The translations under genes and the position numbers were made by a program. This document shows positions 1 through 27,903 of a stretch of 32,000 bases of DNA, one piece after another. This DNA is from Candidatus Saccharimonadota bacterium (lineage in GTDB: Bacteria > Patescibacteriota > Patescibacteriia > 2-12-FULL-60-25). Under the pieces are notes generated by a model that did not search any database, had not been told where the DNA came from, and saw nothing but the letters and a program-made list of their open reading frames with translations. The stretch covers positions 90,001-122,000 of the forward strand of contig JALHOH010000002.1 in the NCBI GenBank assembly GCA_022843095.1. The letters run 5' to 3'. Each line of letters begins with the position of its first letter. Position 1 is the first letter of the stretch.

Positions 1-459
1 GACGCGGACGTCGTCGGAGCGGATCTCTCGCGAAAGGCGCTTGCCGTCGCGGAAACGCGAGCCAAGCGGCTGGGCGTTCCGTTTCTTCCCATGACCGCGG
101 ACCTCGCGCATCTCCCATCGACGGAAGCACAATTCGACTCGATTGTGTGCACGTTCGTGGGATGCACGCTGGACGATCCGCGCGCGGTCTATCGTGAGTT
201 TGCTCGTGTGATCCGGCGGTCCTCCGAGGGCGCCGCATCCGGCAAAGGAGGCTTGCTCATGCTCGAGCACGTTCGTGTTGATAACAGCACCGCCTTCCGC
301 GTGTTCAGCAAGGTGATCGCCCCCTTGTCACGACGGCTGTTGCACTGCGATCCGAATCGCAACACCATGCAGATGGTCGAAGAAGCGGGATTTCGCATCA
401 CGGACACCCAAGCCTTTCTCGGTGGGATGTTCGTGGGGTTCCGCGCCGTTCCCATCTGA
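1..459 (+). CDS. Class I SAM-dependent methyltransferase, 5' end cut by window edge
   Basis: Frame 1 is open from base 1 (DADVVGADLSRKALAVAETRAKRLGVPF... precedes the listed Met at 91). The translation shows methyltransferase-type motifs (FDSIVCTFVGCTL, GGLLMLEH). Stop at 457-459 is followed by a hairpin terminator. Confidence 0.7.
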   Translation, partial: DADVVGADLSRKALAVAETRAKRLGVPFLPMTADLAHLPSTEAQFDSIVCTFVGCTLDDPRAVYREFARVIRRSSEGAASGKGGLLMLEHVRVDNSTAFRVFSKVIAPLSRRLLHCDPNRNTMQMVEEAGFRITDTQAFLGGMFVGFRAVPI

Positions 460-463
460 CCCA

Positions 464-487
464 ACACCACAGAAGTGGTGTTTTTTT
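464..487 (+). terminator. Rho-independent terminator after the methyltransferase gene
   Basis: Stem acaccac (464-470) / gtggtgt (475-481) with 4-nt loop agaa, followed by a T-run at 482-487. Confidence 0.65.
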
Positions 488-529
488 ATGGCTGACAAAC
501 AGAGGAGTATTCGTTACAGTGCTGGGAGT

Positions 530-1438
530 ATGCAAAAAATAATCCCGCATCTGTGGTTTGATACGCAGGCAAAGGAAGCTGCGACGTTTTATACGACGGT
601 TTTTCCAGGGGCCAAGATTCTTTCTTCTACCCTCCTGTCCGGCACGCCATCGGGGAATGTAGAGATCGTTAATTTTGAGGTGTACGGCTTGCGGTTCGGC
701 TCCATCTCGGCGGGGCCGTTTTTTAAGATCAATCCCTCCATTTCGTTCATGATCAACTTTGATCCGTCCAAACAGGCGGATGCGGGAGAGGAGTTGGACC
801 GCGTGTGGAAGGCGCTTTCGGAAGGGGGAACGGTACGCATGCCTATTGGGGAGTATCCGTTTAGTAAGCGGTATGGGTGGATCGAGGATCGGTTCGGGGT
901 GAACTGGCAACTTATTTTGACCGATCCTGCGGGCGAGCCACGACCCAAGCTCATGCCCGCGCTTCTCTTTACCCAGTCTCTGGCTGGAAAAGCGGAGGAG
1001 GCGACGAACTACTATCTTTCCGTGTTCAAAGGGGGAAAACGAGGGAATCTCGCGCGGTATCCGGCGGGGATGGAACCGGACAAAGAGGGGACCATCATGT
1101 TCACGGATGTTGAGCTTGCGGGCCAATGGTTTGTGGCCATGGATAGCGCACAGAAACACGATTTTCTCTTCAATGAAGCGGTGTCGCTCATGGTAGAATG
1201 CGAGACGCAGGAGGAGATCGATTATTACTGGGAAAAATTGAGCGCCGTCCCTGAGGCGGAGCAATGCGGATGGCTGAAAGATCAGTTTGGGATTTCTTGG
1301 CAGATTGTGCCGTCGGACATGGATGCCATGATGTCCAAGGGGACGCCAGAACAGCGTGCACGGGTGACGCACGCGTTTCTGCAGATGAAAAAGTTTGACC
1401 TGGCAACGTTACGCCGGGCGTATGAAGGTGCGATGTAA
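530..1438 (+). CDS. Two-domain VOC/PhnB-like protein (3-demethylubiquinone-9 3-methyltransferase-domain family, glyoxalase fold)
   Basis: MQKIIPHLWFDTQAKEAATFY... is the typical N-terminus of this family. A second copy (KLMPALLFTQSLAGKAEEATNYY...CGWLKDQFGISWQI) shows tandem domains. ATG at 530 follows GGGAG. Earlier in-frame starts at 422 and 488 lie inside or directly after the upstream terminator. Confidence 0.7.
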   Translation: MQKIIPHLWFDTQAKEAATFYTTVFPGAKILSSTLLSGTPSGNVEIVNFEVYGLRFGSISAGPFFKINPSISFMINFDPSKQADAGEELDRVWKALSEGGTVRMPIGEYPFSKRYGWIEDRFGVNWQLILTDPAGEPRPKLMPALLFTQSLAGKAEEATNYYLSVFKGGKRGNLARYPAGMEPDKEGTIMFTDVELAGQWFVAMDSAQKHDFLFNEAVSLMVECETQEEIDYYWEKLSAVPEAEQCGWLKDQFGISWQIVPSDMDAMMSKGTPEQRARVTHAFLQMKKFDLATLRRAYEGAM

Positions 1439-1443
1439 GACGT

Positions 1444-1908
1444 ATGAATAAAATGAAAATGTTGGTTTCAACGGTGATTCAGGCAACGCCGGAACGGGTC
1501 TGGCAGATCATGCTGGATGATGCGACGTATCGAGTTTGGACGTCGGCGTTTTATCCAGGGTCCTACTTCAAAGGCGAATGGAAGGCGGGAACGATCATCT
1601 ATTTTTTGGGCCCCAATCCAGAGGGTACCGGGGAGGGTGGGATGGTGACTGAAGTCAAGGAAGTGCGACCGTTTGAGTTTGTTTCGCTGATGCATCTGGG
1701 CATCATGAAAGATGGGGTCGAAGATCGAGAGAGTCCGGAGGCAAAGGCATGGGCAGGATCGTATGAAAACTACACCTTCACTCCAAAAAACGGCGGAACC
1801 GAGGTGACGGTGGAAATGGATATTTTGGAAGATTTTAAAGGGGTTTTCACTTCCATGTGGGTAAAAGGGTTGGAACGCGTGAAGGCATTGGCAGAAGCAA
1901 GTGCCTAA
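1444..1908 (+). CDS. SRPBCC (AHSA1/START-like) domain protein
   Basis: 154 aa with the pattern VIQATPERVWQIMLD...YRVW... and a C-terminal amphipathic helix, typical of Activator-of-Hsp90-ATPase-homologue/SRPBCC proteins. It lies 5 nt after the upstream stop. Confidence 0.6.
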   Translation: MNKMKMLVSTVIQATPERVWQIMLDDATYRVWTSAFYPGSYFKGEWKAGTIIYFLGPNPEGTGEGGMVTEVKEVRPFEFVSLMHLGIMKDGVEDRESPEAKAWAGSYENYTFTPKNGGTEVTVEMDILEDFKGVFTSMWVKGLERVKALAEASA

Positions 1909-1911
1909 CCC

Positions 1912-1940
1912 TTGCTTTTTTTCCAAAAATAGGGTAGATT
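1912..1940 (+). promoter_or_regulatory. Sigma70-like promoter (TTGCTT - 17 nt - TAGATT), 9 nt upstream of ATG 1950
   Basis: -35-like TTGCTT at 1912-1917, a 17-nt spacer, and -10-like TAGATT at 1935-1940. The start codon at 1950 has no Shine-Dalgarno sequence. Confidence 0.35.
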
Positions 1941-1949
1941 TCATCAACT

Positions 1950-2534
1950 ATGCCTTACGAACGCCGTGAAACGAATGTGTGGTCCAGCCGTGGTGGGAAG
2001 AAGTTTGGGGGGAAATTTGGAGAATCGTCTCGTGAATTCGGCGGACCAAAGCGGTTTCATGGTGGTCGTGACGACCGTCGCGGCGGCTTCGAAAAGCGTG
2101 GAGGGTTTGGCGGTGGGTTTGGTGGCGGACGCGGTGGCTTCCAGGATCGCCCGATGTTTGACGCCACCTGCGTCGAATGCGGAAACGACTGCAAAGTGCC
2201 GTTTCGCCCGAATGGCTCAAAGCCGGTGTACTGCTCCAACTGCTTCCGCAAAGACGGAGCCCCTCAGGGAGACATGGCCCCGCGCGCCCCGCGTGAATCC
2301 GGATCCTCGGATCGTGGCGGTATGGAACGCGAATTGAAGGCCATGGCGGCCAAGATCGATCGGATCCTGTCCATCCTGGAAGAAGCAGCGTTCGAAGTGG
2401 ATGAGGAAGAGATGGACGCAGCGGCTATGATGGACGAAGTCACGGAAGCACCGAAGGAAGAAGTGACGCCAGAGCCAGAGCCGAAAGCAGAAGCAAAACC
2501 GAAGAAGCGCGCCTCAAAGAAGAAGAGCGCGTAA
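1950..2534 (+). CDS. CxxC-x17-CxxC zinc-ribbon protein with RGG/Gly-Arg-rich N-terminus and acidic/Lys-rich tail
   Basis: CVECGNDCKVPFRPNGSKPVYCSNCF gives exactly CxxC-(17)-CxxC. It is preceded by GGFGGGFGGGRGGF repeats and followed by an acidic stretch and a KKRASKKKSA tail. This matches the CxxC-x17-CxxC domain family as I recall it (TIGR04272-type). Confidence 0.75.
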   Translation: MPYERRETNVWSSRGGKKFGGKFGESSREFGGPKRFHGGRDDRRGGFEKRGGFGGGFGGGRGGFQDRPMFDATCVECGNDCKVPFRPNGSKPVYCSNCFRKDGAPQGDMAPRAPRESGSSDRGGMERELKAMAAKIDRILSILEEAAFEVDEEEMDAAAMMDEVTEAPKEEVTPEPEPKAEAKPKKRASKKKSA

Positions 2535-2540
2535 TCACAT

Positions 2541-2563
2541 CCCCGGCCAAGCGCCGGGGTTTG
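2541..2563 (+). terminator. Rho-independent terminator for the CxxC gene
   Basis: Stem ccccggc (2541-2547) / gccgggg (2553-2559), loop caagc, then tttgtg. Confidence 0.55.
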
Positions 2564-2566
2564 TGT

Positions 2567-2596
2567 ATAAAAAACGCTCCAACGAGGTGGAGCGTT
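2567..2596 (-). terminator. Rho-independent terminator for the minus-strand peroxidase-like gene
   Basis: On the minus strand: aacgctcc-acctcgtt-ggagcgtt, followed by a T-run (complement of the A-run 2569-2574). It lies immediately downstream of the stop at 2603-2605. Confidence 0.55.
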
Positions 2597-2602
2597 GCGT
2601 CG

Positions 2603-4003
2603 TTATGGGACGACGGCGTATTCGACGCGGAACGCGTACCGCATGTAGCGGACGATGTCCACGGATTCTTGCGGTGAGATGTTCATGCCGGCTTCCATGT
2701 CCAGCAGGAATGCGGCGAGAGGGGCGTTTCCTTGCGCTTGGGCCGTGAGGGCAGCGCCATGGAGATTCGCCCGAACGCCCGGGAGGAATCGATCGCGGTA
2801 GTGCGCGACGACGTCATCCAGTGAGTGCGCGCTGTTGTCGTGGAAGAACGCGCCGGTCCTTGATCCTGTCCCATGCAGGGACGGGATGCGGTGGAAGACC
2901 GATGGTTGAGGCATCGCGCCGATCGCCGTCAGGATGCACGGAACGGGTGAGATGCATGGATTTGCTCCAGCAACCTGCCCGGTCGGATCTTGGACGATGA
3001 GCGCGCCTGGATCTGCCGCGGTGACACGGATCGGCGCTCCAGCAGGAGCAACGACGGTCCCCGGCGGGATCGGAAGGGGCGACCCGGGTGGCACTACGAG
3101 CGCCTGGAGCAGGCGGATTTCGTAGGTGCGTGCCGGAAGGCCGTTCGCGTTCACCTCAGAGGTGCCATTGCCTGCAAAGGCGAGGTTCGGCGGATCTCCG
3201 GGGTTGAACAGGTTGGTGCGGTTGCGCATCGGACCCGAGTGACAGGCGGCGCAGACGCCTCCGTGTTCCGGATCAGATCCGGAAATGGGTTTGTCTACGA
3301 AGAACTGTCGACCACGACGCAGCGAAGCGGCATAGTCTTCCGGAAGTCCTGATCGAACCTCTGGGAGCGGAGGCGGCTGCGAGGCATTCGCCGCGTATGC
3401 GGCTGTGCTTCGCGAGGTGAACAGGTGTGACTGGAACGCAGCCATCGCTTGTCCTTCAGCGGCTGTTGGCGCGCGACCGGCTGCATGCTGTGCCACCGCA
3501 GACCCCGCCTGATGCGCCAGATCCGATCCCTCTCTTCCGTCCCACATCAGTGCGTGCAAGGAGGAATCGAGGGAGGTTGGAACGGCGCGGAACAGGCGCG
3601 TGGAACGTGCGGTCGGTGATCCGACGATTTGCACGTTCGCGGGGAGTTGGACATCGACGGCAATCAGGCCGTGGTTGACCAACCGGGTATACGCAACCCC
3701 ATCTCCCTCGTCGCTGTTCAGCGGGTTGAAGAGCGGGTGCGTTGGGTGGGTGAGCCGGAGGCGTTGGACGTCTTCAGGCCGAAGCATGAAGTCGGTGAGC
3801 GGGTTGTGGCAGTGCGCACACACCACTCCGTTGCCGCCGAACGTCTCGTGCGTGTAGAGACGGGCGCCCGCACCGAATTGTTCGGGGTTGGACGGCCGAC
3901 GCACCACGACCTCAGAGACTTCTTGAGAAGAACCGGACTGCGACACGCAGCCCAGCAGAATGGACATGAGGATGACGGATAGAAACCGCAAGGCCGGTTT
4001 CAT
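2603..4003 (-). CDS. Di-haem cytochrome c peroxidase/MauG-superfamily lipoprotein (paralogue 1)
   Basis: N-terminus MKPALRFLSVILMSILLGC has a signal peptide plus an LLGC lipobox. Two CxxCH haem-binding motifs (CAHCH, CAACH) lie about 190 aa apart. The C-terminal FFHDNSAHSLDDVVAHY resembles the conserved CCP-family distal motif. Confidence 0.7.
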   Translation of the reverse strand: MKPALRFLSVILMSILLGCVSQSGSSQEVSEVVVRRPSNPEQFGAGARLYTHETFGGNGVVCAHCHNPLTDFMLRPEDVQRLRLTHPTHPLFNPLNSDEGDGVAYTRLVNHGLIAVDVQLPANVQIVGSPTARSTRLFRAVPTSLDSSLHALMWDGREGSDLAHQAGSAVAQHAAGRAPTAAEGQAMAAFQSHLFTSRSTAAYAANASQPPPLPEVRSGLPEDYAASLRRGRQFFVDKPISGSDPEHGGVCAACHSGPMRNRTNLFNPGDPPNLAFAGNGTSEVNANGLPARTYEIRLLQALVVPPGSPLPIPPGTVVAPAGAPIRVTAADPGALIVQDPTGQVAGANPCISPVPCILTAIGAMPQPSVFHRIPSLHGTGSRTGAFFHDNSAHSLDDVVAHYRDRFLPGVRANLHGAALTAQAQGNAPLAAFLLDMEAGMNISPQESVDIVRYMRYAFRVEYAVVP

Positions 4004-4146
4004 CGTTCCCTGTCTTTCTTTTGGGTTCGAAATTCAGACCAAATGTCCCCCCGAACCATTCGAGAGGACGCCGCCACTTTAACGAGCACGTGATGACGTC
4101 GTCAACAAAAATCCCGCCGGATCAGAGAGATCTGGCGGGACGGGTG

Positions 4147-5856
4147 TCAATGCGACGGGTTCGCGAAGGCGATGTGGCCGACGAAGTACGCCTTCATGTC
4201 GTCCATGTCGCCCTGTGTCACGTCGAACCGTGCCGCGATGTCAGGCAGGCCGGCGAACAGCAGGCGGTCGCGCGTCTGGTGGAAGAACACCAGGTAGTGC
4301 GCGAACACGTCATCGATCGTCCGAGCCGAGTTGTCGTGGAAGAAGCGGGGATTGCGCCCCGTCCCCCAGAGCGGCGGCGTCCGAATCGTCGACTGGCCCT
4401 GAGGGATGGGACCGAGGTCGCCGTCCCCATCGTCGTCGAAGTCGAACACCGGGTTCAGGATGCACACGAGGATCGAATCCCCGCAGAGCGACCCCGTGAG
4501 CATGGCGCGACCCAGGTCATGGGTGCGCACAACGCGACGGGGCGATCCGGGCGGATCGAACGGCTCTCGCACCCGAAAGGTGAACTCGGGGAGCGCGTTC
4601 GGGTTCCGCTCCGTCGTCCCGTTGTTCGAGAGGAACAGGTTGATCGCCCCGGTGAGCGGGTTGATGCTCGGGGCGAAGTTGAAGGGCGACTGCTGGTTCA
4701 GCATCGGCCCCGTGTGACAATCCGCGCAGCGACCGCGCGGACCATCGACGTAGAACTCGCGTCCGCGGATCTCCGCCGGCGTATTGCCAGGGGGGAGCGT
4801 GGGCGCCGGCCCTCCCTGCGCGAAGGTGCGCAGGGTGTGGCTCGTAAAGAGCGTCCGCTGGAACGCCGCGATGTTCGCGGCCTCCGCGGTGGTGAACTGT
4901 CGGCTCGTCGCCGACGGTTGGTTGTGCGTCGTGACGGCCCCCGGAGCCTGCGCCTCGAGGGACGGCTCGCGCGCGTCCATCATGAGGTTCGGCTCCAGCA
5001 ACGCGGTGTTGCGCACCGTCGGCGAACCGCGGCGCACCCACACCTTGCACCGCCCGTCCGGGAGCAACTCGCTCGAGGGCGCAGCAGGCGTCCCGCATCC
5101 GTCCACCGAGATGTTCGGCGGCAGGATGAACGGGATGTTGAACGTCGCGGTCGTCCGCAGCTTCGTGTACGTCGTACCCCCAGGGGTATCGGCGTCCACA
5201 CTACGGAAGAGCGGATCGCTCGTCCCGAAGAGGTCCCAGCGCGCCTGCACGGCGTCCACGCCGATCGAGAAGTGCTGGAGCCCCATGTGGCAGGTGTTGC
5301 ACGCCCGCCCGTTCGTGCCGAAATCGTTGTTGAAGAACAATGCCGCCCCATTCAGCACGCTCGGCCCGTGCGAAAGAGCACGCGTGACCTCGGGGAGGTC
5401 ACGTTGGGAAAGGCGCGCGGTCACAGGGGAAACCCCCTGGATCGCCTCCGCCGCGCGGGTCTCCGGGCGCGGAGTCGGCAGCATGCGCCGCTCCTGCTGG
5501 ACCGCGCGCTCCGTCTGGCTCTGAAGGCGCAGGGCGGCCTCGCGAGGCAGGTCGGTGTTCGTGGACGCCGGCGTCTCCGGGGTCCGCGTCGTCACCTCCG
5601 AGCCCTGCAGAGCCGTGCGCTGCCAGGCGGCCTGCACGAACCGCGACAGCGGCTCCCGCTGGCCGTTCGCCCACGCCTGCCGAAGCGGCAGCGTCTGGGT
5701 CGTCACCTCCCGCACCCGACCGTCGTCCGCCCGCACCGGCATCGGCCGAGACGGGGTCTCGGAAGGCGTCGGTGCCGCGCAGGCAGAGGCCATCAGGCCA
5801 AACAGCGCCATCAAAACCAGAGGGAGTCTTCCTCGTACGTCGCGGATGGGCATCAT
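4147..5856 (-). CDS. Di-haem cytochrome c peroxidase/MauG-superfamily lipoprotein (paralogue 2)
   Basis: Signal peptide with ...LMASAC. CNTCH and CADCH have the same spacing as the neighbour, and FFHDNSARTIDDVFAHY is shared with it. The start is chosen at the ATGATG (5856) 10 nt after AGGAGG on the minus strand; the track start at 5865 is only 1 nt from the SD. Confidence 0.7.
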   Translation of the reverse strand: MMPIRDVRGRLPLVLMALFGLMASACAAPTPSETPSRPMPVRADDGRVREVTTQTLPLRQAWANGQREPLSRFVQAAWQRTALQGSEVTTRTPETPASTNTDLPREAALRLQSQTERAVQQERRMLPTPRPETRAAEAIQGVSPVTARLSQRDLPEVTRALSHGPSVLNGAALFFNNDFGTNGRACNTCHMGLQHFSIGVDAVQARWDLFGTSDPLFRSVDADTPGGTTYTKLRTTATFNIPFILPPNISVDGCGTPAAPSSELLPDGRCKVWVRRGSPTVRNTALLEPNLMMDAREPSLEAQAPGAVTTHNQPSATSRQFTTAEAANIAAFQRTLFTSHTLRTFAQGGPAPTLPPGNTPAEIRGREFYVDGPRGRCADCHTGPMLNQQSPFNFAPSINPLTGAINLFLSNNGTTERNPNALPEFTFRVREPFDPPGSPRRVVRTHDLGRAMLTGSLCGDSILVCILNPVFDFDDDGDGDLGPIPQGQSTIRTPPLWGTGRNPRFFHDNSARTIDDVFAHYLVFFHQTRDRLLFAGLPDIAARFDVTQGDMDDMKAYFVGHIAFANPSH

Positions 5857-5962
5857 GGTTCCCATCCCTCCTTACATGCGCCTTTGCCGCCTCACCATTG
5901 AAACGGGAAAGGCTGACGGAGCGTACGGGGTTTTTTGCTGACTGACAAGGGTGACCAGTGAC

Positions 5963-16343: not shown

Positions 16344-16397
16344 ATCGGTGGCCGTATCTTTTCATATCGGACGCAAAGGCTCAAGGGTGCGCAGGTA

Positions 16398-16406
16398 TGG
16401 TATACT
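16398..16406 (+). promoter_or_regulatory. Extended -10-like element TGgTATACT, 10 nt upstream of ATG 16417
   Basis: TG at 16398-16399 and hexamer TATACT at 16401-16406. There is no SD before the ATG. Confidence 0.35.
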
Positions 16407-16416
16407 TCCATCATCG

Positions 16417-17541
16417 ATGCGGTTATTTTCCTGCACCCGTCGTGTTTGGCGCGTCGTCCCATTGGTTTGGGCGGTTGTTTGTACGTTTTTGATCGGATGG
16501 CGGTTGACCGGTGATTCCTACGCAGCCATGCAAAATTATTTGGTGATCGTTGGGCAAACAAAGCCAAGTGCAGCAACAAACGTTCTGTTTTCGTTTAAGC
16601 CAAATACCACGACAACCGGTGGGATGCAGGTTCGCCTTTCGTTCCATCCGAGTTTTACGCTTCCGGTCGCGGCGGCAACGTCGGATGTTGTGTTTACCAT
16701 CGATTCGGTGACGCAGACCGTGGGGTTGATCCAAACGACGGCGACGCATGGTCTTGCGCGCAGTGGAAACGCGTATGTATTTACCGTGGCTTCCGGGACG
16801 ACGATCGGCGCAGCATCGTCCGTCCGCATGATCGTTGGGCGCGATGGGACGCTGACAAATCCGCCCAGCGTTGGAACATACGGGGTTGGGACGCAAATCA
16901 CGACCATGGGGGGTTCGACGGTAAATAGTCATGCTAGCAATATCGCGATCGTCGACGCCGTGGCATTTTCGGCATTTGTGAGCTCCACTTCGCCGTCGTA
17001 TGTGATCCGCTGGGCGACGCCGGAATTGCGCGTAGGAGCAACGGAGACCAACGATGACGCGCGGTTTTTTGTGACGGCGCGTACGTCGATCGACACGGAT
17101 AACGTCATCCAGTACACGGACGCGCAACTTGCGACGACCAGTAACGACGGGACCTACTACACGACCACCACCATGACGGGATTGTCCTCGGGAACCTATG
17201 ATGTGGGGATCAAGACGCACCAGCATCTCACAAAATTAATCCAGGACGTGACGCTTACCGCCGGGACGACAACGGTGTTGAACTTCACGAATGAGACGAA
17301 TACCTCCACAAAAGGGTCAGAACGGCTGCTCGCCGGAGATATTAGCGGGTTAGGAAACTCTACGACGACGCTTGGGGATGATGTGATCAATGCGGTGGAC
17401 ATCAGTATTCTGGTGAATGATCTGGACGATGATGACCTGACGGGGAATGTGCTGCGACCGAACCTGAATCAAGACGTGGTGGTGAACGCCGTGGATCTGA
17501 GTATTCTCATTAAAAATCTTGACCTCGAAGGGGAACGCTAA
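16417..17541 (+). CDS. Secreted beta-rich protein with a C-terminal dockerin-like double EF-hand module
   Basis: Signal/anchor MRLFSCTRRVWRVVPLVWAVVCTFLIGW...SYA. The N-terminal domain resembles that of the three paralogues downstream. The C-terminus GDISGLG...DDVINAVDISILVNDL / NLNQDVVVNAVDLSILIKNL fits the dockerin Ca-binding repeat pattern (D/N-x-N-x-D-x3-N-x2-D-x3-L). The stop TAA overlaps the next ATG (TAATG). Confidence 0.6.
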   Translation: MRLFSCTRRVWRVVPLVWAVVCTFLIGWRLTGDSYAAMQNYLVIVGQTKPSAATNVLFSFKPNTTTTGGMQVRLSFHPSFTLPVAAATSDVVFTIDSVTQTVGLIQTTATHGLARSGNAYVFTVASGTTIGAASSVRMIVGRDGTLTNPPSVGTYGVGTQITTMGGSTVNSHASNIAIVDAVAFSAFVSSTSPSYVIRWATPELRVGATETNDDARFFVTARTSIDTDNVIQYTDAQLATTSNDGTYYTTTTMTGLSSGTYDVGIKTHQHLTKLIQDVTLTAGTTTVLNFTNETNTSTKGSERLLAGDISGLGNSTTTLGDDVINAVDISILVNDLDDDDLTGNVLRPNLNQDVVVNAVDLSILIKNLDLEGER

Positions 17542-20173: not shown

Positions 20174-21223
20174 ATGGCCATGCAAGACCAACTCGTCCCG
20201 ACCACCGGGGGAAATACGCAAGCCCAGACCGATGGTCAGTGGCAATACGTCGTCGATCCAAAAACGCTTCCGCCCGGCTATCACACGGTACAGGCGACGG
20301 ATGATCAGGGCGGAACGTATGAAGCGGGGCTCTATATTGAGCCGGCGCAACCTACCACTGATGCGCCGCCTTTGTTTGTGGTGCAGGAGTCGGTCTCTAT
20401 TGTGGATCGGGTAAAAACGGTGATTCCGGAGGCGGGTGCTTGGGCCGTGCTGGCGTTATTTGTGGTGGTGTTGTGCCTTGCTGCGATCGGTGTGCGTCAG
20501 GTGTGGCGCGCACGACGTCATGCAGCCGTGGAGACCACGACTTCCTATCCGTTGAAGTGGAAATTGGCGTTTGGTGGGATTGCGGGATTGGTCGCGATCG
20601 CCATCGGGATCATCGTGTGGTCGTCACGAACCCCGAATACGTTTACGCCGATGGTGAATCGCGTCCGTTCGACGCTTGGAACGGCGGAAACTGCGCCGCG
20701 TGAGGTTGCTGTTTCTGGACGATTCGTGGATCCGCGAAATCCTGCGCAATCCGTGGTTGGGATCGACCTTGTTTCTGGCGACACGGCCATTCGTACTCAA
20801 GAAGGCGGTCGGTTTCAGTTTGAAGCGGTATCGGAAGAAACGGGGATCCGCCTCACGCATCCATCACTCATGCGCGCGTTCGTGTGGGTTCCAGTCGCGC
20901 GTGTAGAGAATAGCGAAGTCCCATTTGATCCCTCTCTTTTGAATGCGATTGTGACACGTGCTGATGCTGAAGCGCGTGGAGATCAGGCGCGTGTGCAGAC
21001 GTTGTTTGTAGAAGGCGTCCAGGCACCCTCCGCGGTGTTCACGGCCGCTGATACATTGCGTCAGGAAATTGCATTCCATCGTTTATTGCGTGTTGATGCG
21101 GCCACGGATGCGACCGGAAAAGCGCAGTGGGATCAGGTGATTCGGATGGAGCTTGCGCGGCCGAATGCGGCGGCGTCTTGGGATCTTGTCTATGCCTCTG
21201 ATGGCTGGCGGTTTATCCGCTAA
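20174..21223 (+). CDS. Membrane protein (two TM helices) with an Ig-like N-terminal fragment and a carboxypeptidase-regulatory-like beta-sandwich; possibly the detached C-terminal part of the upstream gene
   Basis: There is no signal peptide and no SD. The N-terminus ...TDGQWQYVVDPKTLPPGYHTVQATDDQGGTYEAGLYIE looks like the second half of an Ig-like domain. TM segments are AWAVLALFVVVLCLAAIGV and LAFGGIAGLVAIAIGIIVW. The segment VSGRFVD...GGRFQFEAV resembles the CarboxypepD_reg pattern (weak). Confidence 0.5.
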   Translation: MAMQDQLVPTTGGNTQAQTDGQWQYVVDPKTLPPGYHTVQATDDQGGTYEAGLYIEPAQPTTDAPPLFVVQESVSIVDRVKTVIPEAGAWAVLALFVVVLCLAAIGVRQVWRARRHAAVETTTSYPLKWKLAFGGIAGLVAIAIGIIVWSSRTPNTFTPMVNRVRSTLGTAETAPREVAVSGRFVDPRNPAQSVVGIDLVSGDTAIRTQEGGRFQFEAVSEETGIRLTHPSLMRAFVWVPVARVENSEVPFDPSLLNAIVTRADAEARGDQARVQTLFVEGVQAPSAVFTAADTLRQEIAFHRLLRVDAATDATGKAQWDQVIRMELARPNAAASWDLVYASDGWRFIR

Positions 21224-22121
21224 TCAACGAACCGGAGCGGCGGCGATCATTGCCGCCCTTGTGCTTTGTGTTGTGTTTTTTCTGGCGACGCGCGGAGAAT
21301 CTCCGCACACACCATCCCCGGAGGCGATCGCGGATCAGGGATTTGCGCCGTCTGACCTTCCGTTGGAACAGCGGTGTCGGCCGCCGTCTCGTAAGGATGC
21401 CCGTTGGTGGGAAGATGCTGCCAAGATGGCCGCGTTTTATGGGGGCGTTCCAGAGCCAACCGTGGATTGTGACAACGACGGGGCGATTGGACTTGCGGAT
21501 GTGGGCCTTTTAGCTGCCCGCAGCATTGGCGCGATTGCGAACGCACCCTCGACGGATCCGGAAGGGGAAAAAATTGAAGGGCTTCGTGGAATGGTTGATG
21601 GTGTGCCGCATGTAGATATTTTAGCGCCGCAGCTCACGGGAGGTGTCCAAGTCTATCTGCGTGTTCCAGAGGGAACGTCCATCGCATGGATGACCGAAGA
21701 GGGGAACTGGATTCAACCGCCGCGGGTGCAGAGTGGATTTTTGCATGGTGTTTGGATGCGACGTGGCCGCGAGATGCGTACGCCGCTCGTCCGGATCCGT
21801 TTGCCGGAGACATCGATGGTTGCCTTGCAACCGACACTTGGGATGCAGGGGAGTGGATTGGATGATCCACGGCGAGTCGTGGGTCTTCGGTATCTTGAAC
21901 GCGTAGCGACACTGTCCCCGTTACCCACATCAAGGAAGATCGAAGCGCACATATTCGAGATTGAAACCGTGTTAGGCTCCCAGCGTGTGTGGATCGGGGA
22001 CGCGGGGGGTCGCGCGGTGGATTCCGCGGGATTTCTGGTGGATGGAACGTGGGTACCGGGCACCATTCTTGCGCTCCCGCCTTTGCCGGCACGGTCTGTT
22101 GAATTTCGTCTGACGCCTTAA
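21192..22121 (+). CDS. N-terminally membrane-anchored hypothetical protein with one dockerin/EF-hand-like motif
   Basis: TM segment GAAAIIAALVLCVVFFLA, and motif VDCDNDGAIGLADVGLLAARSI. The start is uncertain (21153 non-ATG, ATG 21192 or ATG 21201). It overlaps the end of the previous gene. Confidence 0.45.
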   Translation: MPLMAGGLSANQRTGAAAIIAALVLCVVFFLATRGESPHTPSPEAIADQGFAPSDLPLEQRCRPPSRKDARWWEDAAKMAAFYGGVPEPTVDCDNDGAIGLADVGLLAARSIGAIANAPSTDPEGEKIEGLRGMVDGVPHVDILAPQLTGGVQVYLRVPEGTSIAWMTEEGNWIQPPRVQSGFLHGVWMRRGREMRTPLVRIRLPETSMVALQPTLGMQGSGLDDPRRVVGLRYLERVATLSPLPTSRKIEAHIFEIETVLGSQRVWIGDAGGRAVDSAGFLVDGTWVPGTILALPPLPARSVEFRLTP

Positions 22122-22790: not shown

Positions 22791-24146
22791 ATGCCAGAGC
22801 TAACGCGTGTGGCGGGGGCAGCAAAGTCCAACCGGTTTACAACCGCATTGTACTTTTTGCTGTTCGCCGCTTTGTTCGTGTTCGGTGCTTGGATGTTCCA
22901 GCGCCCGGTGAACGCCGGTGCGTTGACGAGCGTTCAGATCATTCTTTCGAAGACGGCTCCGTCTTCGACACAGACCAACATTGAATACAGTTTCTACGTC
23001 ACAACGACGATGAACGGTACGGGATGTTCTTCTGCGACGTCGGAAGACTCCTGTTTCCGTCTGCGGCTTTCCTTGCCAGCCACGTCGACAGCGGGTTACG
23101 GCTACCAATCTGCATTCGCTGTGACGTCCACCATCGCGACGTCATCCAACCCAAGCGCATGTGCGGGTGCGAACTCAGATGTGTGTGTGAAAGCGGATGG
23201 GTATAACTTCGATGACTTGGTCGTGACGCAGGTCGTGACCAGCACGCAGTCTTCTGCCGCAACGGCAGATTACCCGGATCGCATTGATGTCTACCTTGGT
23301 TCCACCACGTCGGTGACGACCGGTACGCGCATCCGTGTGTTCTTCTACAATGGTGTCTTTACGACGCCAGGGTTTAAGCCGGGTCATGTGGAAGGGTATG
23401 CGGACATTCATGGGTTGGGTATCACCACCATGCGCTGTCCAAACTTTGACGGATCTCAGTGTCAGGGAACGGAAGCGACCTACGACACCGGTTCCTCCAA
23501 CGTCGCCATTCAAGAAGCCACAACCTTTACCGCCACGGTCAATGAATCCATGACCTTCACGGTGAACGCCGTGGATGCAGGAACATCGATCGGGACGGGT
23601 GCTCCAATCGTGACCAACATTGGTTCCACGACGACCTCCTGCCCGTTTGGCACTCTCTCACCGTTTGTTCCAAAGATCTGCGCCCAGCGCGTGGAATGGA
23701 TCACCTCCGCCGCAGGTGGAGCCGGGGTCTACGTGGTGCAAAACGGGAACATGTCCACCTCGACCTACGATATCGATCAATTCAAGGATGGAACGCGTCT
23801 TACGCCGGGAACCGCAGCAGACTGGACCTCTCCAACGGGCAACCCGGGAGATGAAAACTCATGGGGTCACCTGGGTTACACGGGAACCTCGACGGATGCG
23901 GCAGTCACCGGTGCAGGAAACTTCAGCTCTGGGGAACGGTATGCCGGTATCTTGACCCGCCCAGGGTTGCAGGCAAATCCGGATTTGATCTTCGCCAGCA
24001 ACTCGAACGCGTTGATCGCCTCGACGGCTGCTGCGAACTCGACGGAAGTGCACGCCTACTCGGTCTACAAGATCGAAGTGTCCTCACTGCAGGAATCCGG
24101 AACGTACTCGAATGAAATTCAGTATCAGATTGTGGCAAGCTACTAA
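22791..24146 (+). CDS. Secreted Cys-paired beta-rich surface protein, paralogue A (C-terminal half WxL-domain-like by pattern; family unassigned)
   Basis: Signal anchor ...ALYFLLFAALFVFGAWMFQRPVNA, then GALTSVQIILSKTAPSSTQTN. Eight Cys occur in four close pairs. The C-terminus is ...LQESGTYSNEIQYQIVASY. It is paralogous to 25189..26541 and 26563..27903. Confidence 0.7.
   Translation: MPELTRVAGAAKSNRFTTALYFLLFAALFVFGAWMFQRPVNAGALTSVQIILSKTAPSSTQTNIEYSFYVTTTMNGTGCSSATSEDSCFRLRLSLPATSTAGYGYQSAFAVTSTIATSSNPSACAGANSDVCVKADGYNFDDLVVTQVVTSTQSSAATADYPDRIDVYLGSTTSVTTGTRIRVFFYNGVFTTPGFKPGHVEGYADIHGLGITTMRCPNFDGSQCQGTEATYDTGSSNVAIQEATTFTATVNESMTFTVNAVDAGTSIGTGAPIVTNIGSTTTSCPFGTLSPFVPKICAQRVEWITSAAGGAGVYVVQNGNMSTSTYDIDQFKDGTRLTPGTAADWTSPTGNPGDENSWGHLGYTGTSTDAAVTGAGNFSSGERYAGILTRPGLQANPDLIFASNSNALIASTAAANSTEVHAYSVYKIEVSSLQESGTYSNEIQYQIVASY
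23346..23410 (+). repeat. 65-nt block perfectly identical to 25735-25799 (paralogue A vs B)
   Basis: Compared by eye: tacaatggtgtctttacgacgccagggtttaagccgggtcatgtggaagggtatgcggacattca occurs in both copies. The flanks are diverged. Confidence 0.9.
23481..23686 (+). repeat. 206-nt block matching 25876-26081 with 4 mismatches (includes a 128-nt perfect run 23526-23653 = 25921-26048)
   Basis: Hand alignment of the two paralogues at a constant offset of 2395 nt. The mismatches are at 23503, 23525, 23654 and 23659. Sequence is diverged immediately upstream and downstream of the block. Confidence 0.85.
24045..24146 (+). repeat. 102-nt block perfectly identical to 26440-26541 (3' ends of paralogues A and B including the TAA stop)
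   Basis: Hand alignment shows the copies are identical from gaagtgcacgcc... to ...gcaagctactaa. Sequences diverge directly before the block and directly after the stop codon. Confidence 0.9.
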
Positions 24147-24182
24147 TTCACCTTCAACAATACATCTACTATTCGGAGGAAT

Positions 24183-25127
24183 ATGTACCTGTCACAACGT
24201 CTAAAACATGCGGTCATCGGAGGCGTCGCTTCCACGGTCGCATTTACGGGGCTCGTCGCCGCACCGGCGGCGGCCCTCGCGGCGGAAGGAACAACGATCG
24301 CGCCGCTGAATACCGTCTTAAACCAGGAACCTGGAACGAACACGGCATTCAAAATTCAGGTGATGAATGGAGGATCGACGGCGCAAACCTATACGATGGA
24401 AGTGTATAGCTTCATGCCGACGAACGATGAAGGTGGAGTGGTTCACTTCCCTTCACAGAAGGATGATCTGAGTGGATGGGTGACGGTGAATCCACGTACG
24501 GTCACGGTCGAACCGGGCCGCACGGCGGATGTCACGGCACAGGTCCGCGTCCCGACAACCGCACGTCCTGGTGGTCACTACGCAACAGTGTTCGCCTCAA
24601 CGCGTGGAACGAAGCCGGGAACGTCCGGAATGGCGATCGGGTACGGTGTCGGTTCCAACTTGTTGGTCAATGTGAAGGGGGATGTGGTGGAGAGCGCGCA
24701 GGTGTTGGACTTCTCCATGCCGAACGCACGTGTCGTGCCTGGAGAACCGCTCTACTTCAATGCACGCGTTCGCAACAAGGGGAACACCCACGTCATGCCA
24801 AAGGGCATGGTGGAAATCTTCCGCGGGGACATCAAGATGGATGAAATCAAGTTGAATGAAGGGGCGGGGTACATCTTGCCGGACAGCGCGCGCAAATTCA
24901 TGGCGATGTCCAACAAGACCCTGACTCCGGGGCAATACACGGCAAAATTGACGCTCAGCATCGGCGAAGGAAAGTACTTGCCGGTGGATCCGATCAACTT
25001 CGTGGTGATCGGGGAAACGTCTCTTGCCGCGATCGTGGCAACGATTCTCGGGATCTTCGTCCTGATTCTCCTCGCCGCGCTCATGGTCAACCGAAAGCCA
25101 GCGGAAGCCGGAAACGGTCGCCGCTAA
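24183..25127 (+). CDS. Secreted tandem Ig-like (DUF916/DUF3324-like, CscA-like architecture) protein with C-terminal TM anchor and basic tail
   Basis: - GGAGG at 24175-24179.
- Signal peptide: ...LVAAPAAALA.
- First module: FKIQVMNGGSTAQTYTMEVYSF...GWVTVNPRTVTVEPGRTADVTAQVRVPTTARPGGHY.
- Second module: LYFNARVRNKGNTHVMPKG...LTPGQYTAKLTL.
- C-terminal anchor: AAIVATILGIFVLILLAALMV followed by NRKPAEAGNGRR. Confidence 0.55.
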   Translation: MYLSQRLKHAVIGGVASTVAFTGLVAAPAAALAAEGTTIAPLNTVLNQEPGTNTAFKIQVMNGGSTAQTYTMEVYSFMPTNDEGGVVHFPSQKDDLSGWVTVNPRTVTVEPGRTADVTAQVRVPTTARPGGHYATVFASTRGTKPGTSGMAIGYGVGSNLLVNVKGDVVESAQVLDFSMPNARVVPGEPLYFNARVRNKGNTHVMPKGMVEIFRGDIKMDEIKLNEGAGYILPDSARKFMAMSNKTLTPGQYTAKLTLSIGEGKYLPVDPINFVVIGETSLAAIVATILGIFVLILLAALMVNRKPAEAGNGRR

Positions 25128-25138
25128 TCGGCAAAAAA

Positions 25139-25165
25139 ACACCTCTCAATCGAGAGGTGTTTTTT
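25139..25165 (+). terminator. Rho-independent terminator
   Basis: Stem acacctctc (25139-25147) / gagaggtgt (25152-25160), loop aatc, and T-run 25160-25165. An A-run lies upstream. Confidence 0.7.
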
Positions 25166-25166
25166 A

Positions 25167-25175
25167 TGCTAGAAT
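25167..25175 (+). promoter_or_regulatory. Extended -10-like element TGcTAGAAT, 13 nt upstream of ATG 25189
   Basis: TG at 25167-25168 and hexamer TAGAAT at 25170-25175. It overlaps the track start ATG 25174, which favours ATG 25189 as the true start. Confidence 0.4.
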
Positions 25176-25188
25176 GGGTTCAAGATTT

Positions 25189-26541
25189 ATGATCTCCTTT
25201 GCAAAACAGGTTTCCACGTTCATCTATTTCGCGGTATTCATCGCGCTGTTCATTTGTTTCGCTTGGTTATTCCAGCGTCCGGCGAATGCGGGTGCATTGA
25301 CGAATGTGCAAATCATTCTGTCGAAGACGGCGCCTTCATCGACTCAGACGAATATTGAATACCTGTTCCACGTGACCTCGACGATGGACGCGACCAACTG
25401 TACGGCGACGTCCACGCAATCCTGTTTCCGGTTTCGGTTGAATTTTCCGACGACGTCTACGGCAGGGTATGGATGGGGATCCGCGTTTCGCGTGACCTCG
25501 ACCATTGCGACCTCGACGAATCCGGATGCCTGTTCTGGCGCAAACTCAGACGTGTGTGTGAGTGCGTCAGGGACGGGAGGGATCGTGTTTAATTCCAATG
25601 ATTTGGTGGTGGTTCGAGTGGTGACGAGTACGCAGAACGGCACGGGCGCGACACGGGACTATCCGAACCGCATGGATGTCTACGTTGGATCCGTGACCAG
25701 CGTGACCACTGGAACGCAGATTGCGATTCGTTTTTACAATGGTGTCTTTACGACGCCAGGGTTTAAGCCGGGTCATGTGGAAGGGTATGCGGACATTCAC
25801 GGGCTTACGGTTTCGACTGCAAAATGTCGGCAATTTGATGTGTTTCAGAACGGCTGTTTCTTTGACAATATCGATTACGACACCGGTTCCTCCAACGTTG
25901 CCATTCAAGAAGCCACAACATTTACCGCCACGGTCAATGAATCCATGACCTTCACGGTGAACGCCGTGGATGCAGGAACATCGATCGGGACGGGTGCTCC
26001 AATCGTGACCAACATTGGTTCCACGACGACCTCCTGCCCGTTTGGCACGCTCTCTCCGTTTGTTCCAAAGATCTGCGCCCAACGTGTAGAGTGGGTGACT
26101 TCTGCGGCGGGCGGTGCAGGGGTGTATGTGGTACAGGATGGGAACATGTCCACCTCGACCTACGATATCGATCAATTCAAGGATGGATCGCGTCTTTCTC
26201 CGACCAGCGCGGTGAATTGGGCCTCTCCAACGGGCAACCCGGGAGATGAAAACACCTGGGGTCACCTGGGCTACACGGGGACCTCCACCGATGCGGCGGT
26301 GACCGGCGCGTCACTCTTCGCCTCAGGGGAAAACTACGCGGGGCTCCTGACGCGCCCGGGACTGCAAGCGAACTTGGACACGATTATTACAGGGAACTTG
26401 AACGGTCAGATCGCCTATACCTCAGCGCCTAACGCATCAGAAGTGCACGCCTACTCGGTCTACAAGATCGAAGTGTCCTCACTGCAGGAATCCGGAACGT
26501 ACTCGAATGAAATTCAGTATCAGATTGTGGCAAGCTACTAA
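25189..26541 (+). CDS. Secreted Cys-paired beta-rich surface protein, paralogue B
   Basis: MISFAKQVSTFIYFAVFIALFICFAWLFQRPANA, then GALTNVQIILSKTAPSSTQTN. It has the same four Cys pairs and the same C-terminus as paralogue A, including a 102-nt identical 3' end. Confidence 0.7.
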   Translation: MISFAKQVSTFIYFAVFIALFICFAWLFQRPANAGALTNVQIILSKTAPSSTQTNIEYLFHVTSTMDATNCTATSTQSCFRFRLNFPTTSTAGYGWGSAFRVTSTIATSTNPDACSGANSDVCVSASGTGGIVFNSNDLVVVRVVTSTQNGTGATRDYPNRMDVYVGSVTSVTTGTQIAIRFYNGVFTTPGFKPGHVEGYADIHGLTVSTAKCRQFDVFQNGCFFDNIDYDTGSSNVAIQEATTFTATVNESMTFTVNAVDAGTSIGTGAPIVTNIGSTTTSCPFGTLSPFVPKICAQRVEWVTSAAGGAGVYVVQDGNMSTSTYDIDQFKDGSRLSPTSAVNWASPTGNPGDENTWGHLGYTGTSTDAAVTGASLFASGENYAGLLTRPGLQANLDTIITGNLNGQIAYTSAPNASEVHAYSVYKIEVSSLQESGTYSNEIQYQIVASY

Positions 26542-26562
26542 GCGCAACTTTCTTAATCGTGT

Positions 26563-27903
26563 ATGAAGCATTCCGTATTCGAGCGGTTCACGCAGGCATT
26601 ACTTGCTTGCGTGTTTCTCTTCGTCATTGGTTTTGTTTGGCATTCCGTGACAACGCCTGTGCGTGCAGGAACGCTTTCTAATGTCCAGGCAATTCTGTCG
26701 AAAACATCTCCATCGACCACGCAGACCAACATGCAGTTCATTTTTACGGTGACATCGACCATGTCGAATGCGAACTGCGACTTTAACGCGATTGGTGAAA
26801 CCTGTTTTCGCATTCGATTAGCCATGCCAGTCACAAGTACGGCGGGATATGGATGGGGATCCGCCTTCCAGGTCGCGCCGATGGCAACGTCTACTAACTA
26901 TCAAGATTGTAATGGATCAAACGCGGACGTGTGTGTTCATGCGAGTGGGACGGGGTATCTCATGGGGCACCTCGCCGTTCTTGCAGTCGTCACCTCCTCG
27001 AATCCTGCGAATGGATCGACGGCGGTCTATCCGGATACGCTTGATATCTATATTGGTTCAGGGACAACGGTATATGCGGGAACGCAGATCTACCTCTGGT
27101 TCTATAATGGGAAGTTTACTACCCCGGGATTTAAGCCAGGACACCAAACAGGAGAGATTGATTTTCACGGGATTGGGATCGAAACTTCAAAATGTCGAAA
27201 CTGGAACGGCTCCACCTGCGTGGAAAGTGTGGACTATGACAATGCCGTTGGCGTTGTCACGATCATGGATCCGGTGACGTTTTCCGCGAGCGTTGATGAG
27301 TCCTTGCAGTTCATCGTTCGCTCTGTTGCAACAGGGACGATTATTGGAACGTATGAGCAGTTGAATCCGACGATGGGGTCTGCGACGTCATCCTGTGCAT
27401 TTGGAACGCTTGCGCCGTTTGTTCCGAAAACCTGCGCGCATCGGCTGGAGTGGCTCACTTCGGCACAAGGAGGTGCGGCCGTGTATGTCGTGCAAGATGC
27501 GAACCTACGCGATGGACAGGCGGATATCGATCAATTCAATAATGGACTACGCCTCCATCCCGGAGCTGCTGTTCCTTGGGTGTCGCCCTCTGCGGATCCG
27601 AGCAGTGAATCAACGTGGGGACATTTAGGATATGCAGCAACGTCGACGGATGCGGCGGTCACGTCCTATGGCGCATTTCAAACGGGACCGAATTTTGGAG
27701 GTATTTTAGTGCGTCCGGATTTGCAGACGCGTCCCAGTGATATTTTCCCTGCGCCGAATAAAAACGCATCGATTGCGTACACAACTGGGCCGAATACCTC
27801 CCTTGTACACGCCTATGTAGTGTATCGGGTAGAGATCAGTCCGTTGCAAGAAGCAGGGGACTATCAAAACGAAATTCAGTATCAGATTGTAGCTCAGTAC
27901 TGA
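26563..27903 (+). CDS. Secreted Cys-paired beta-rich surface protein, paralogue C (more diverged)
   Basis: MKHSVFERFTQALLACVFLFVIGFVWHSVTTPVRA, then GTLSNVQAILSKTSPSTTQTN. The Cys pairs are conserved and the C-terminus is ...LQEAGDYQNEIQYQIVAQY. It starts 21 nt after the paralogue B stop. Confidence 0.7.
   Translation: MKHSVFERFTQALLACVFLFVIGFVWHSVTTPVRAGTLSNVQAILSKTSPSTTQTNMQFIFTVTSTMSNANCDFNAIGETCFRIRLAMPVTSTAGYGWGSAFQVAPMATSTNYQDCNGSNADVCVHASGTGYLMGHLAVLAVVTSSNPANGSTAVYPDTLDIYIGSGTTVYAGTQIYLWFYNGKFTTPGFKPGHQTGEIDFHGIGIETSKCRNWNGSTCVESVDYDNAVGVVTIMDPVTFSASVDESLQFIVRSVATGTIIGTYEQLNPTMGSATSSCAFGTLAPFVPKTCAHRLEWLTSAQGGAAVYVVQDANLRDGQADIDQFNNGLRLHPGAAVPWVSPSADPSSESTWGHLGYAATSTDAAVTSYGAFQTGPNFGGILVRPDLQTRPSDIFPAPNKNASIAYTTGPNTSLVHAYVVYRVEISPLQEAGDYQNEIQYQIVAQY

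Follow-up and report, generated by a model that had tools for sequence, protein, structure and literature searches.

Which kind of surface structure is built from three paralogous secreted proteins whose genes flank that of a membrane-anchored protein with two immunoglobulin (Ig)-like domains? The question is raised by a locus in a stretch of 32,000 nucleotides (the window) from assembly GCA_022843095.1 (Candidatus Saccharimonadota bacterium; contig JALHOH010000002.1, positions 90,001 to 122,000), a genome of the Candidate Phyla Radiation (CPR), whose members are mostly uncultured episymbionts that rely on surface filaments to reach their hosts. A first-pass annotation, made from the sequence alone, had likened the four genes, here called paralogue A, the middle protein, paralogue B and paralogue C (Table 1), to the Csc loci of Firmicutes, with the middle protein as a CscA-like (DUF916 plus DUF3324) component and the C-terminal halves of the paralogues as WxL-like domains. 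Our analysis leads to a partly different answer: the locus is probably a divergent Pam-type pilus operon of an Uhrbacteria-related CPR bacterium, and its product would be a thin filament put together by donor-strand exchange with the help of a chaperone. Pam pili of CPR bacteria, first described in 2026, comprise the pilins PamA/PamB and the chaperones PamC/PamD in Candidatus Mycosynbacter amalyticus (bioRxiv 10.64898/2026.03.03.709456).

The four open reading frames (ORFs), all on the + strand, were confirmed at the sites given by the first-pass annotation, and the three paralogues do flank the tandem-Ig protein. A and B share 76-77% identity, A/C and B/C 53% (BLASTP E about 1e-150 or lower), a paralogy far above chance. 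Their signal peptides end in VNA, ANA and VRA, each followed by G, and in A the signal peptide precedes an N-terminal beta-sandwich, which a linker joins to the C-terminal domain. An AlphaFold2 model of C (mean pLDDT 87.5) consists of a nine-strand N-terminal domain (NTD; residues 35-234, strands at 39-234), a single, unpaired and conserved linker strand (235-247) and an Ig-like C-terminal domain (CTD; 248-446), the layout that was reported for PamA and PamB, i.e., nine NTD strands, linker and CTD (bioRxiv 10.64898/2026.03.03.709456). The linker of C carries alternating hydrophobic residues (V238/F240/A242/V244; V-x-F-x-A-x-V), which makes it a candidate for a donated strand. Per-column conservation over 50 family members is highest in the linker, in the core of the CTD and in its C-terminal strands, the same regions that are most conserved in Pam pilins (bioRxiv 10.64898/2026.03.03.709456); paired cysteines occur in both groups (paralogue C has four Cys pairs), and a conserved aromatic residue terminates 50/50 proteins of the window family (e.g., ...TLTYIATPTF-COOH).

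Pfam gave no family match for A, B or C. The NCBIfam model NF058581 (CPR_Pam_pilin_C), however, matches the last 43 residues of C (17.3 bits, E 0.0039) and is matched by 47/67 and 39/50 family members (best E 3.5e-10), several of which cover model positions 3 to 148 (of 148) up to the C-terminus of the protein. Judged by this profile, the paralogue CTD and the C-terminal model of Pam pilins are remotely homologous. Foldseek placed the C model closest to chaperone-usher subunits that are strand-complemented (FimH with the FimG strand, CsuE, CfaB-CfaB, and CupB6). In relatives, the CTD also sits behind other N-terminal parts, for example in a 996-aa protein with faint lectin-domain matches, and such fusions are typical of pilus tip adhesins. 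The tract of perfect identity between A and B (Table 1) lies in a segment of about 180 nt with about 98% identity, against a background of 50-88%, and spans the linker and the first CTD strands; comparison of the two sequences suggests that gene conversion has probably kept the donor and acceptor region identical.

Overall, the paralogues fit the architecture of CPR Pam pilins better than that of WxL proteins. The motifs on which the WxL comparison had been based are present in A in the order described (MTFTVNAVD, SCPFGTLSPFVPKIC, RVEWITSAAGGAGVYVVQ, VYKIEVSSLQESGTYSNEIQYQIVASY), but the domain assignment did not hold up. PF13731 (WxL) matched neither A, B and C (E<=1) nor 50 family members (E<=0.1), and literal WxL triplets were not found in the paralogues, as had been stated at the outset. 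Reference WxL domains were taken from clusters on Paenibacillus plasmids in which a DUF916 gene is accompanied by a small WxL gene and by a gene for a large protein with a WxL domain at its end; aligned to these domains with hhalign, the paralogue family obtained probabilities of 0.4% (one sequence) and 0.2% (four-sequence profile). No WxL chain was among the top 50 Foldseek matches of the C model in the PDB, although the library includes 9i25. With Pfam, hhalign against genuine WxL domains and Foldseek all negative, a WxL identity of the paralogues was rejected. A C-terminal echo is visible by eye, WxL domains ending in ...AGTYKSVFTYTATSGI-COOH and the paralogue family in ...AGDYTNTLTYIATPTF-COOH, but it has no statistical support. 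The Paenibacillus plasmid clusters are compact (L050, 5788-10621; L052, 1179-6591), and their WxL domains are themselves devoid of literal WxL triplets at the C-terminus (FTYTATSGI).

The middle protein is the part of the locus for which the comparison with Csc proteins proved fruitful. Its hydrophobic, signal-peptide-like N-terminus ends in AALA, followed by AEG, and the AlphaFold2 model (mean pLDDT 77, core 85-95) shows beta-sandwich domains at residues 38-140 and 155-275, then a helix (278-302) and the basic tail NRKPAEAGNGRR, so that the predicted arrangement of signal peptide, two Ig-like modules, C-terminal transmembrane helix and basic tail is borne out by both sequence and model. A C-terminal hydrophobic anchor is found in 44/48 family members. 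Of the supposed DUF916+DUF3324 composition, the first half is supported and the second is not. Within the four proteins, PF06030 (DUF916/WxLIP_PGBD) gave a sub-threshold match to the middle protein (21.8 vs 27.3 bits gathering threshold, E 2e-4), whereas PF13731 and PF11797 (DUF3324/HBD) gave none; PF06030 was matched by 22/48 CPR family members (best E 2.5e-9) and 6/9 in another set, PF11797 by none of 57 relatives. Hhalign of the family against three annotated DUF916 proteins yielded 97.4-98.6% (E 1e-11 to 9e-16) over 220-230 columns and both domains, and 96.3% for the middle protein alone. Because the controls (shuffled, reversed, and other Ig-like proteins) reached at most 1.8%, the DUF916 match is not generic Ig similarity.

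Searches against solved structures point in the same direction. With the family profile, Enterococcus faecium WxLIP1 (9i25_C, 9i1y_A) provided the only significant sequences in the PDB (hmmsearch, E about 6e-6 [5.8e-6]), and the best Foldseek match of the model was 9i25_C, a WxLIP bound to WxL (4.6e-12), nearly tied with the chaperones CfaA and CsuC (1.3e-11 each) and followed by DraB, EcpB, SafB and FimC, with RbmA lower. PapD-type chaperones were not found by sequence in the PDB with this profile, their similarity being one of fold only; one relative had been named 'P pilus assembly chaperone PapD' by JGI. The motif NQIDKxxxYFDLK of WxLIP is not in the translation of the middle protein. Taken together, the profile matches show the middle protein to be remotely homologous to WxLIP/DUF916-type proteins, and its fold, as modelled, is chaperone-like (PapD-like). 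A publication on structure 9i25 was not found in the literature. According to the WxLIP paper (PMC10599100), the WxL sandwich is predicted to be completed by a strand of WxLIP, which is chaperone-like strand complementation. By analogy with the WxLIP hairpin, residues 142-166 of the middle protein are a candidate for the F1-G1 loop and the G1 donor strand of a chaperone. Genes next to Streptomyces DUF916 genes were neither WxL-like nor pilin-like.

Pilin-like and chaperone-like genes are linked well beyond the window. A scan of species-representative genomes with a profile of the paralogue CTD yielded 47 loci, and although these were fetched via the CTD alone, a gene of the middle-protein family lies nearby on the same strand in 35 of them (1-3 genes each). 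With few exceptions their titles are Falkowbacteria, Paceibacteria, Parcubacteria, Kaiserbacteria, Nomurabacteria, Harrisonbacteria, Saccharibacteria or Patescibacteria, i.e., metagenome-assembled genomes (MAGs) of CPR/Patescibacteria type, in agreement with the earlier placement of the system outside Firmicutes. A search of 1.84 billion representatives with the paralogue profile detected 1752 representative clusters with E<=1e-3, of which 279 reach E<=1e-30. In both nearest relatives, a Candidatus Uhrbacteria MAG (L001) and an ENA MAG (L002), the operon is syntenic and nearly all of its genes have homologues.

The title 'Gammaproteobacteria', which is unconfirmed, was given to 2/47 loci, L003 (CAZHKL010000005.1) and L004 (CAYUCS010000003.1; both 'uncultured Gammaproteobacteria'). 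Both contain members of the pilin family, which is otherwise of CPR type, and no full-length relative is closer to the window paralogues than that in L003. The titles may be in error, or else the pilin family is also present outside the CPR; Pfam matches of the neighbouring genes were not diagnostic for taxonomy. In L003 two glycosyltransferases and a Wzy_C/O-antigen-ligase-like protein (284-5494) lie directly upstream of a pilin-chaperone-pilin trio and, because PamA was reported as O-glycosylated, may constitute a pilin glycosylation module. Seven other loci (L016, L021, L024, L029, L034, L038, and L042) have their pilin genes surrounded by three distinct members of the chaperone family (about 300, 360, and 430-570 aa), which by analogy may have separate chaperone and anchor roles like those of PamC, PamD and PamR; the window carries only one chaperone-family gene.

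From these elements we propose the following mode of assembly. The CPR host has no outer membrane. The three paralogues would be pilins exported by Sec, and the 314-aa two-Ig protein, tethered by its C-terminal helix, would act on the outer face of the cytoplasmic membrane, where this PapD/WxLIP-like chaperone would cap the presumably incomplete CTD of a pilin with one of its own strands. The linker strand of the next pilin would then displace the chaperone strand (donor-strand exchange), giving rise to a linear filament that may be stabilised by NTD contacts and four disulfides per subunit. A role in this scheme is suggested for the first gene of the operon, whose product shares NTD and linker with the paralogues (hhalign 95%, E 3.5e-8; linker strand NIAIVDAVAFSAFVSST, 16939-16989) and lacks the CTD. 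Because of this composition, it could donate but not accept a strand, and is therefore a candidate terminator or anchor that might cap or anchor the proximal end of the filament. At its C-terminus two dockerin-like repeats (17335-17520) can be recognised by eye. The linkage to cohesin/dockerin-like modules proposed earlier is thereby only weakly confirmed, with a faint precomputed Dockerin_1 match in the L002 homologue of ORF 21153..22121; Pfam, however, found nothing in the window operon proteins scanned and did not confirm the dockerin at 17335-17520.

Several points weigh against this model. The cut-off of NF058581 (55 bits) was reached nowhere (C 17.3 bits, family 16-37 bits), A and B did not match it at E<=1, the homology to Pam was drawn from the NCBIfam model only, and the Foldseek TM-scores of the full-length two-domain pilin are low (0.15-0.25). 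Neither a tip pilin of the PamT type (CTD only) nor a counterpart of the RbmA-like membrane anchor PamR was recognised in the window, where the CTD is confined to A, B and C and a single gene encodes a two-Ig transmembrane chaperone-like protein. The closest solved sequence relative of the middle protein, WxLIP, has been described as a stable surface anchor of WxL and not as an assembly chaperone. Finally, it is an inference that the middle protein works as a chaperone, that strands are exchanged, that filaments form and that the upstream gene has the role suggested above.

The main rival of the Pam-type reading is a static surface complex of the WxL/WxLIP (Csc) type, in which the anchored two-Ig protein would permanently hold the paralogues by an inserted strand and these would be displayed adhesins rather than filament subunits. 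The middle protein is nearer by sequence to WxLIP than to any other solved protein, aligns with DUF916 over both domains, and has the WxLIP-WxL complex as its top structural match. It also shares with the WxLIP of Bacillota clusters (PF13731, PF06030, PF11797; PDB 9i1y, 9i25) the signal peptide, the order of the two Ig-like domains and the C-terminal transmembrane helix, and sits, like WxLIP, among two or more secreted client genes; the usual arrangement of one WxLIP plus at least two clients resembles the locus, and complementation of the WxL client by a WxLIP strand is predicted (PMC10599100). The C-terminal motif AGxYxxxhxYxh...-COOH of the paralogues, moreover, echoes the C-termini of WxL domains. 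In a static complex, however, the conserved linker strand with its alternating hydrophobic residues would serve no role. The operon also contains an NTD-plus-linker protein without CTD, and the CTD of the paralogues matches the model of a pilin that was seen by cryo-electron microscopy to polymerise. The clients in the window are two-domain proteins with a donor-type linker in a CPR host and not WxL domains (no WxL motifs, no PF13731, no profile similarity; Pfam, hhalign and Foldseek agree), and the middle protein differs from WxLIP in having neither a PF11797 match nor the NQIDKxxxYFDLK motif. We therefore regard the static complex as unlikely.

The paralogues might instead be unrelated secreted beta-sandwich adhesins or envelope proteins that merely share an operon with an Ig-like membrane protein, without any strand complementation. 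Ig-like domains do yield many weak matches (fn3_5, NPCBM_assoc, choice_anch_T, integrin legs), and no curated family threshold is reached except that of the generic fn3_5. This reading is improbable in view of the strong and specific co-occurrence in 35/47 independent loci, the hhalign controls, which set the DUF916 match apart from generic Ig similarity, and the concentration of conservation on linker and C-terminal strand. Sortase-assembled or TasA-like fibres, which are other monoderm filament types, are very improbable. Foldseek did weakly match a TasA fibre (8aur, TMt 0.37) and two sortase pilins, RrgA and SpaD, but the paralogues end in a conserved aromatic residue and have no LPXTG motif or C-terminal membrane anchor, no sortase, SipW-like peptidase or other family could be assigned among the operon proteins scanned, and a dedicated two-Ig chaperone-like gene is conserved instead.

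The Pam-type pilus thus remains the preferred reading, and the window system resembles Pam pili in its two-domain pilins with signal peptide, in a PapD/FimC-like protein of two domains that is encoded next to them and has a transmembrane helix at its C-terminus, in the CPR host without usher and in a CTD that aligns with NF058581. It differs from them in that all scores of the window family stay under the curated cut-off, three tandem paralogues surround a single chaperone, equivalents of PamT, PamR and PamE are not recognised, and no ATP-synthase neighbourhood is seen in the window; NF058579 had no match among the operon proteins scanned. The operon in the window also encodes the protein of NTD and linker that carries dockerin-like repeats, as well as a membrane protein of 485 aa, and its lineage is Uhrbacteria-related, as opposed to the Saccharimonadia or Microgenomatia of Pam. 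With chaperone-usher pili, especially the archaic (Csu) and alternative (CFA/I) ones, the window system shares a chaperone model that superposes on CfaA, CsuC, DraB, EcpB, SafB and FimC, a pilin model that matches strand-complemented FimH, CsuE and CfaB, and a C-terminal strand ending in a conserved aromatic residue. In contrast to them, the window system has neither outer membrane nor usher (none was found among the operon proteins scanned), its chaperone is membrane-anchored and without sequence-level similarity to PapD-family chaperones, its pilins are two-domain proteins, and the candidate donor strand is an internal linker and not an N-terminal extension.

The operon is tightly packed on the + strand from 16348 to at least 29402 and is bounded upstream by two tRNA genes on the opposite strand; an Rfam search of the window revealed nothing beyond these two tRNAs, and promoter and terminator scans of the window gave counts no higher than chance. 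The four genes between the NTD-plus-linker gene and paralogue A are conserved in the same order in L001 and L002. The 485-aa protein downstream of C had no family match, and its position in the related loci (Table 1) identifies it, by gene order, as a conserved partner of the pilin and chaperone genes.

Table 1. Coordinates of the putative pilus operon and of sequence features within it (positions in the window)
Feature	Position	Strand	Basis
First operon gene: paralogue-type NTD and linker strand, without acceptor CTD	16348..17541	+	hhalign and reading
Secreted multi-Ig/FnIII-like protein, 875 aa	17541-20168	+	homologues in L001, L002
Membrane protein, 349 aa	20174-21223	+	homologues in L001, L002
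Protein with dockerin-like segment, 322 aa	21153-22121	+	homologues in L001, L002
Secreted DUF11-like single-Ig protein, 175 aa	22161-22688	+	homologues in L001, L002
Paralogue A, pilin-like, 469 aa	22737..24146 (GTG 22737; alternative ATG 22791)	+	ORF and BLASTP
Perfect identity between A and B, 128 nt	23526..23653 (A), 25921-26048 (B)	+	sequence comparison
Middle protein, membrane-anchored two-Ig chaperone-like, 314 aa	24183..25127	+	WxLIP/DUF916 remote homologue, PapD-like fold
Low-confidence loop and next conserved strand of middle protein, GTKPGTSGMAIGYGVGSNLLVNVKG, residues 142-166	24606..24680	+	model; analogy with WxLIP hairpin (PMC10599100)
C-terminal transmembrane helix (residues 280-302) and basic tail of middle protein	25020..25124	+	model and sequence
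Paralogue B, pilin-like, 455 aa	25174..26541 (NCBI start probably 25189)	+	ORF and BLASTP
Paralogue C, pilin-like, 446 aa	26563..27903	+	ORF and AlphaFold2 model
Inter-domain linker and first CTD strand of C, VVTIMDPVTFSASVDESLQFIVRSV	27253..27327 (equivalents A 23499-23573, B 25894-25968)	+	conservation
Protein with N-terminal membrane segment, 485 aa	27945..29402	+	adjoins pilin and chaperone genes in L001, L002, L003

Outside the operon, two paralogous ORFs on the - strand (2603-4003 and 4147-5865) have two CxxCH haem-binding motifs each and, by eye, resemble di-haem peroxidases. They are located in an island of 64-68% GC, compared to about 55% elsewhere; this is surprising in a CPR genome and could be due to horizontal acquisition.

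The kind of system described here is already known from the Pam preprint and from the NCBIfam models of June 2026. The window locus stands apart in that its scores fall under every curated threshold, that its lineage was not highlighted in the preprint and that its operon composition is different, and the link of the chaperone to WxLIP is a new element. The Pam preprint (bioRxiv 10.64898/2026.03.03.709456) does not mention a homology between chaperone and WxLIP, nor do the consulted sections of the WxLIP paper (PMC10599100) mention Pam or CPR pili. We consider this link the most interesting lead of the analysis. The Pam design is shared by a far larger and more divergent family, with about 1750 representative clusters from lineages such as Uhrbacteria, Falkowbacteria, Paceibacteria and Kaiserbacteria, which the curated Pam models do not recognise and which current annotation therefore misses. 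That the chaperone is tied to WxLIP by sequence, profile and structure suggests a common origin and mechanism of two systems that have so far been studied separately. It is possible, if still a tentative proposition, that the Pam-like pilus chaperones of the CPR and the WxLIP of Bacillota and Actinomycetota are true homologues, and that Pam-type pili and WxL/Csc systems go back, as two branches, to a single ancient chaperone-subunit system that worked without an usher in bacteria with one membrane. If so, WxL proteins would be chaperoned by strand complementation and perhaps polymerised, and the C-terminal echo that links WxL domains to the pilin CTD would have been inherited from a common ancestor.

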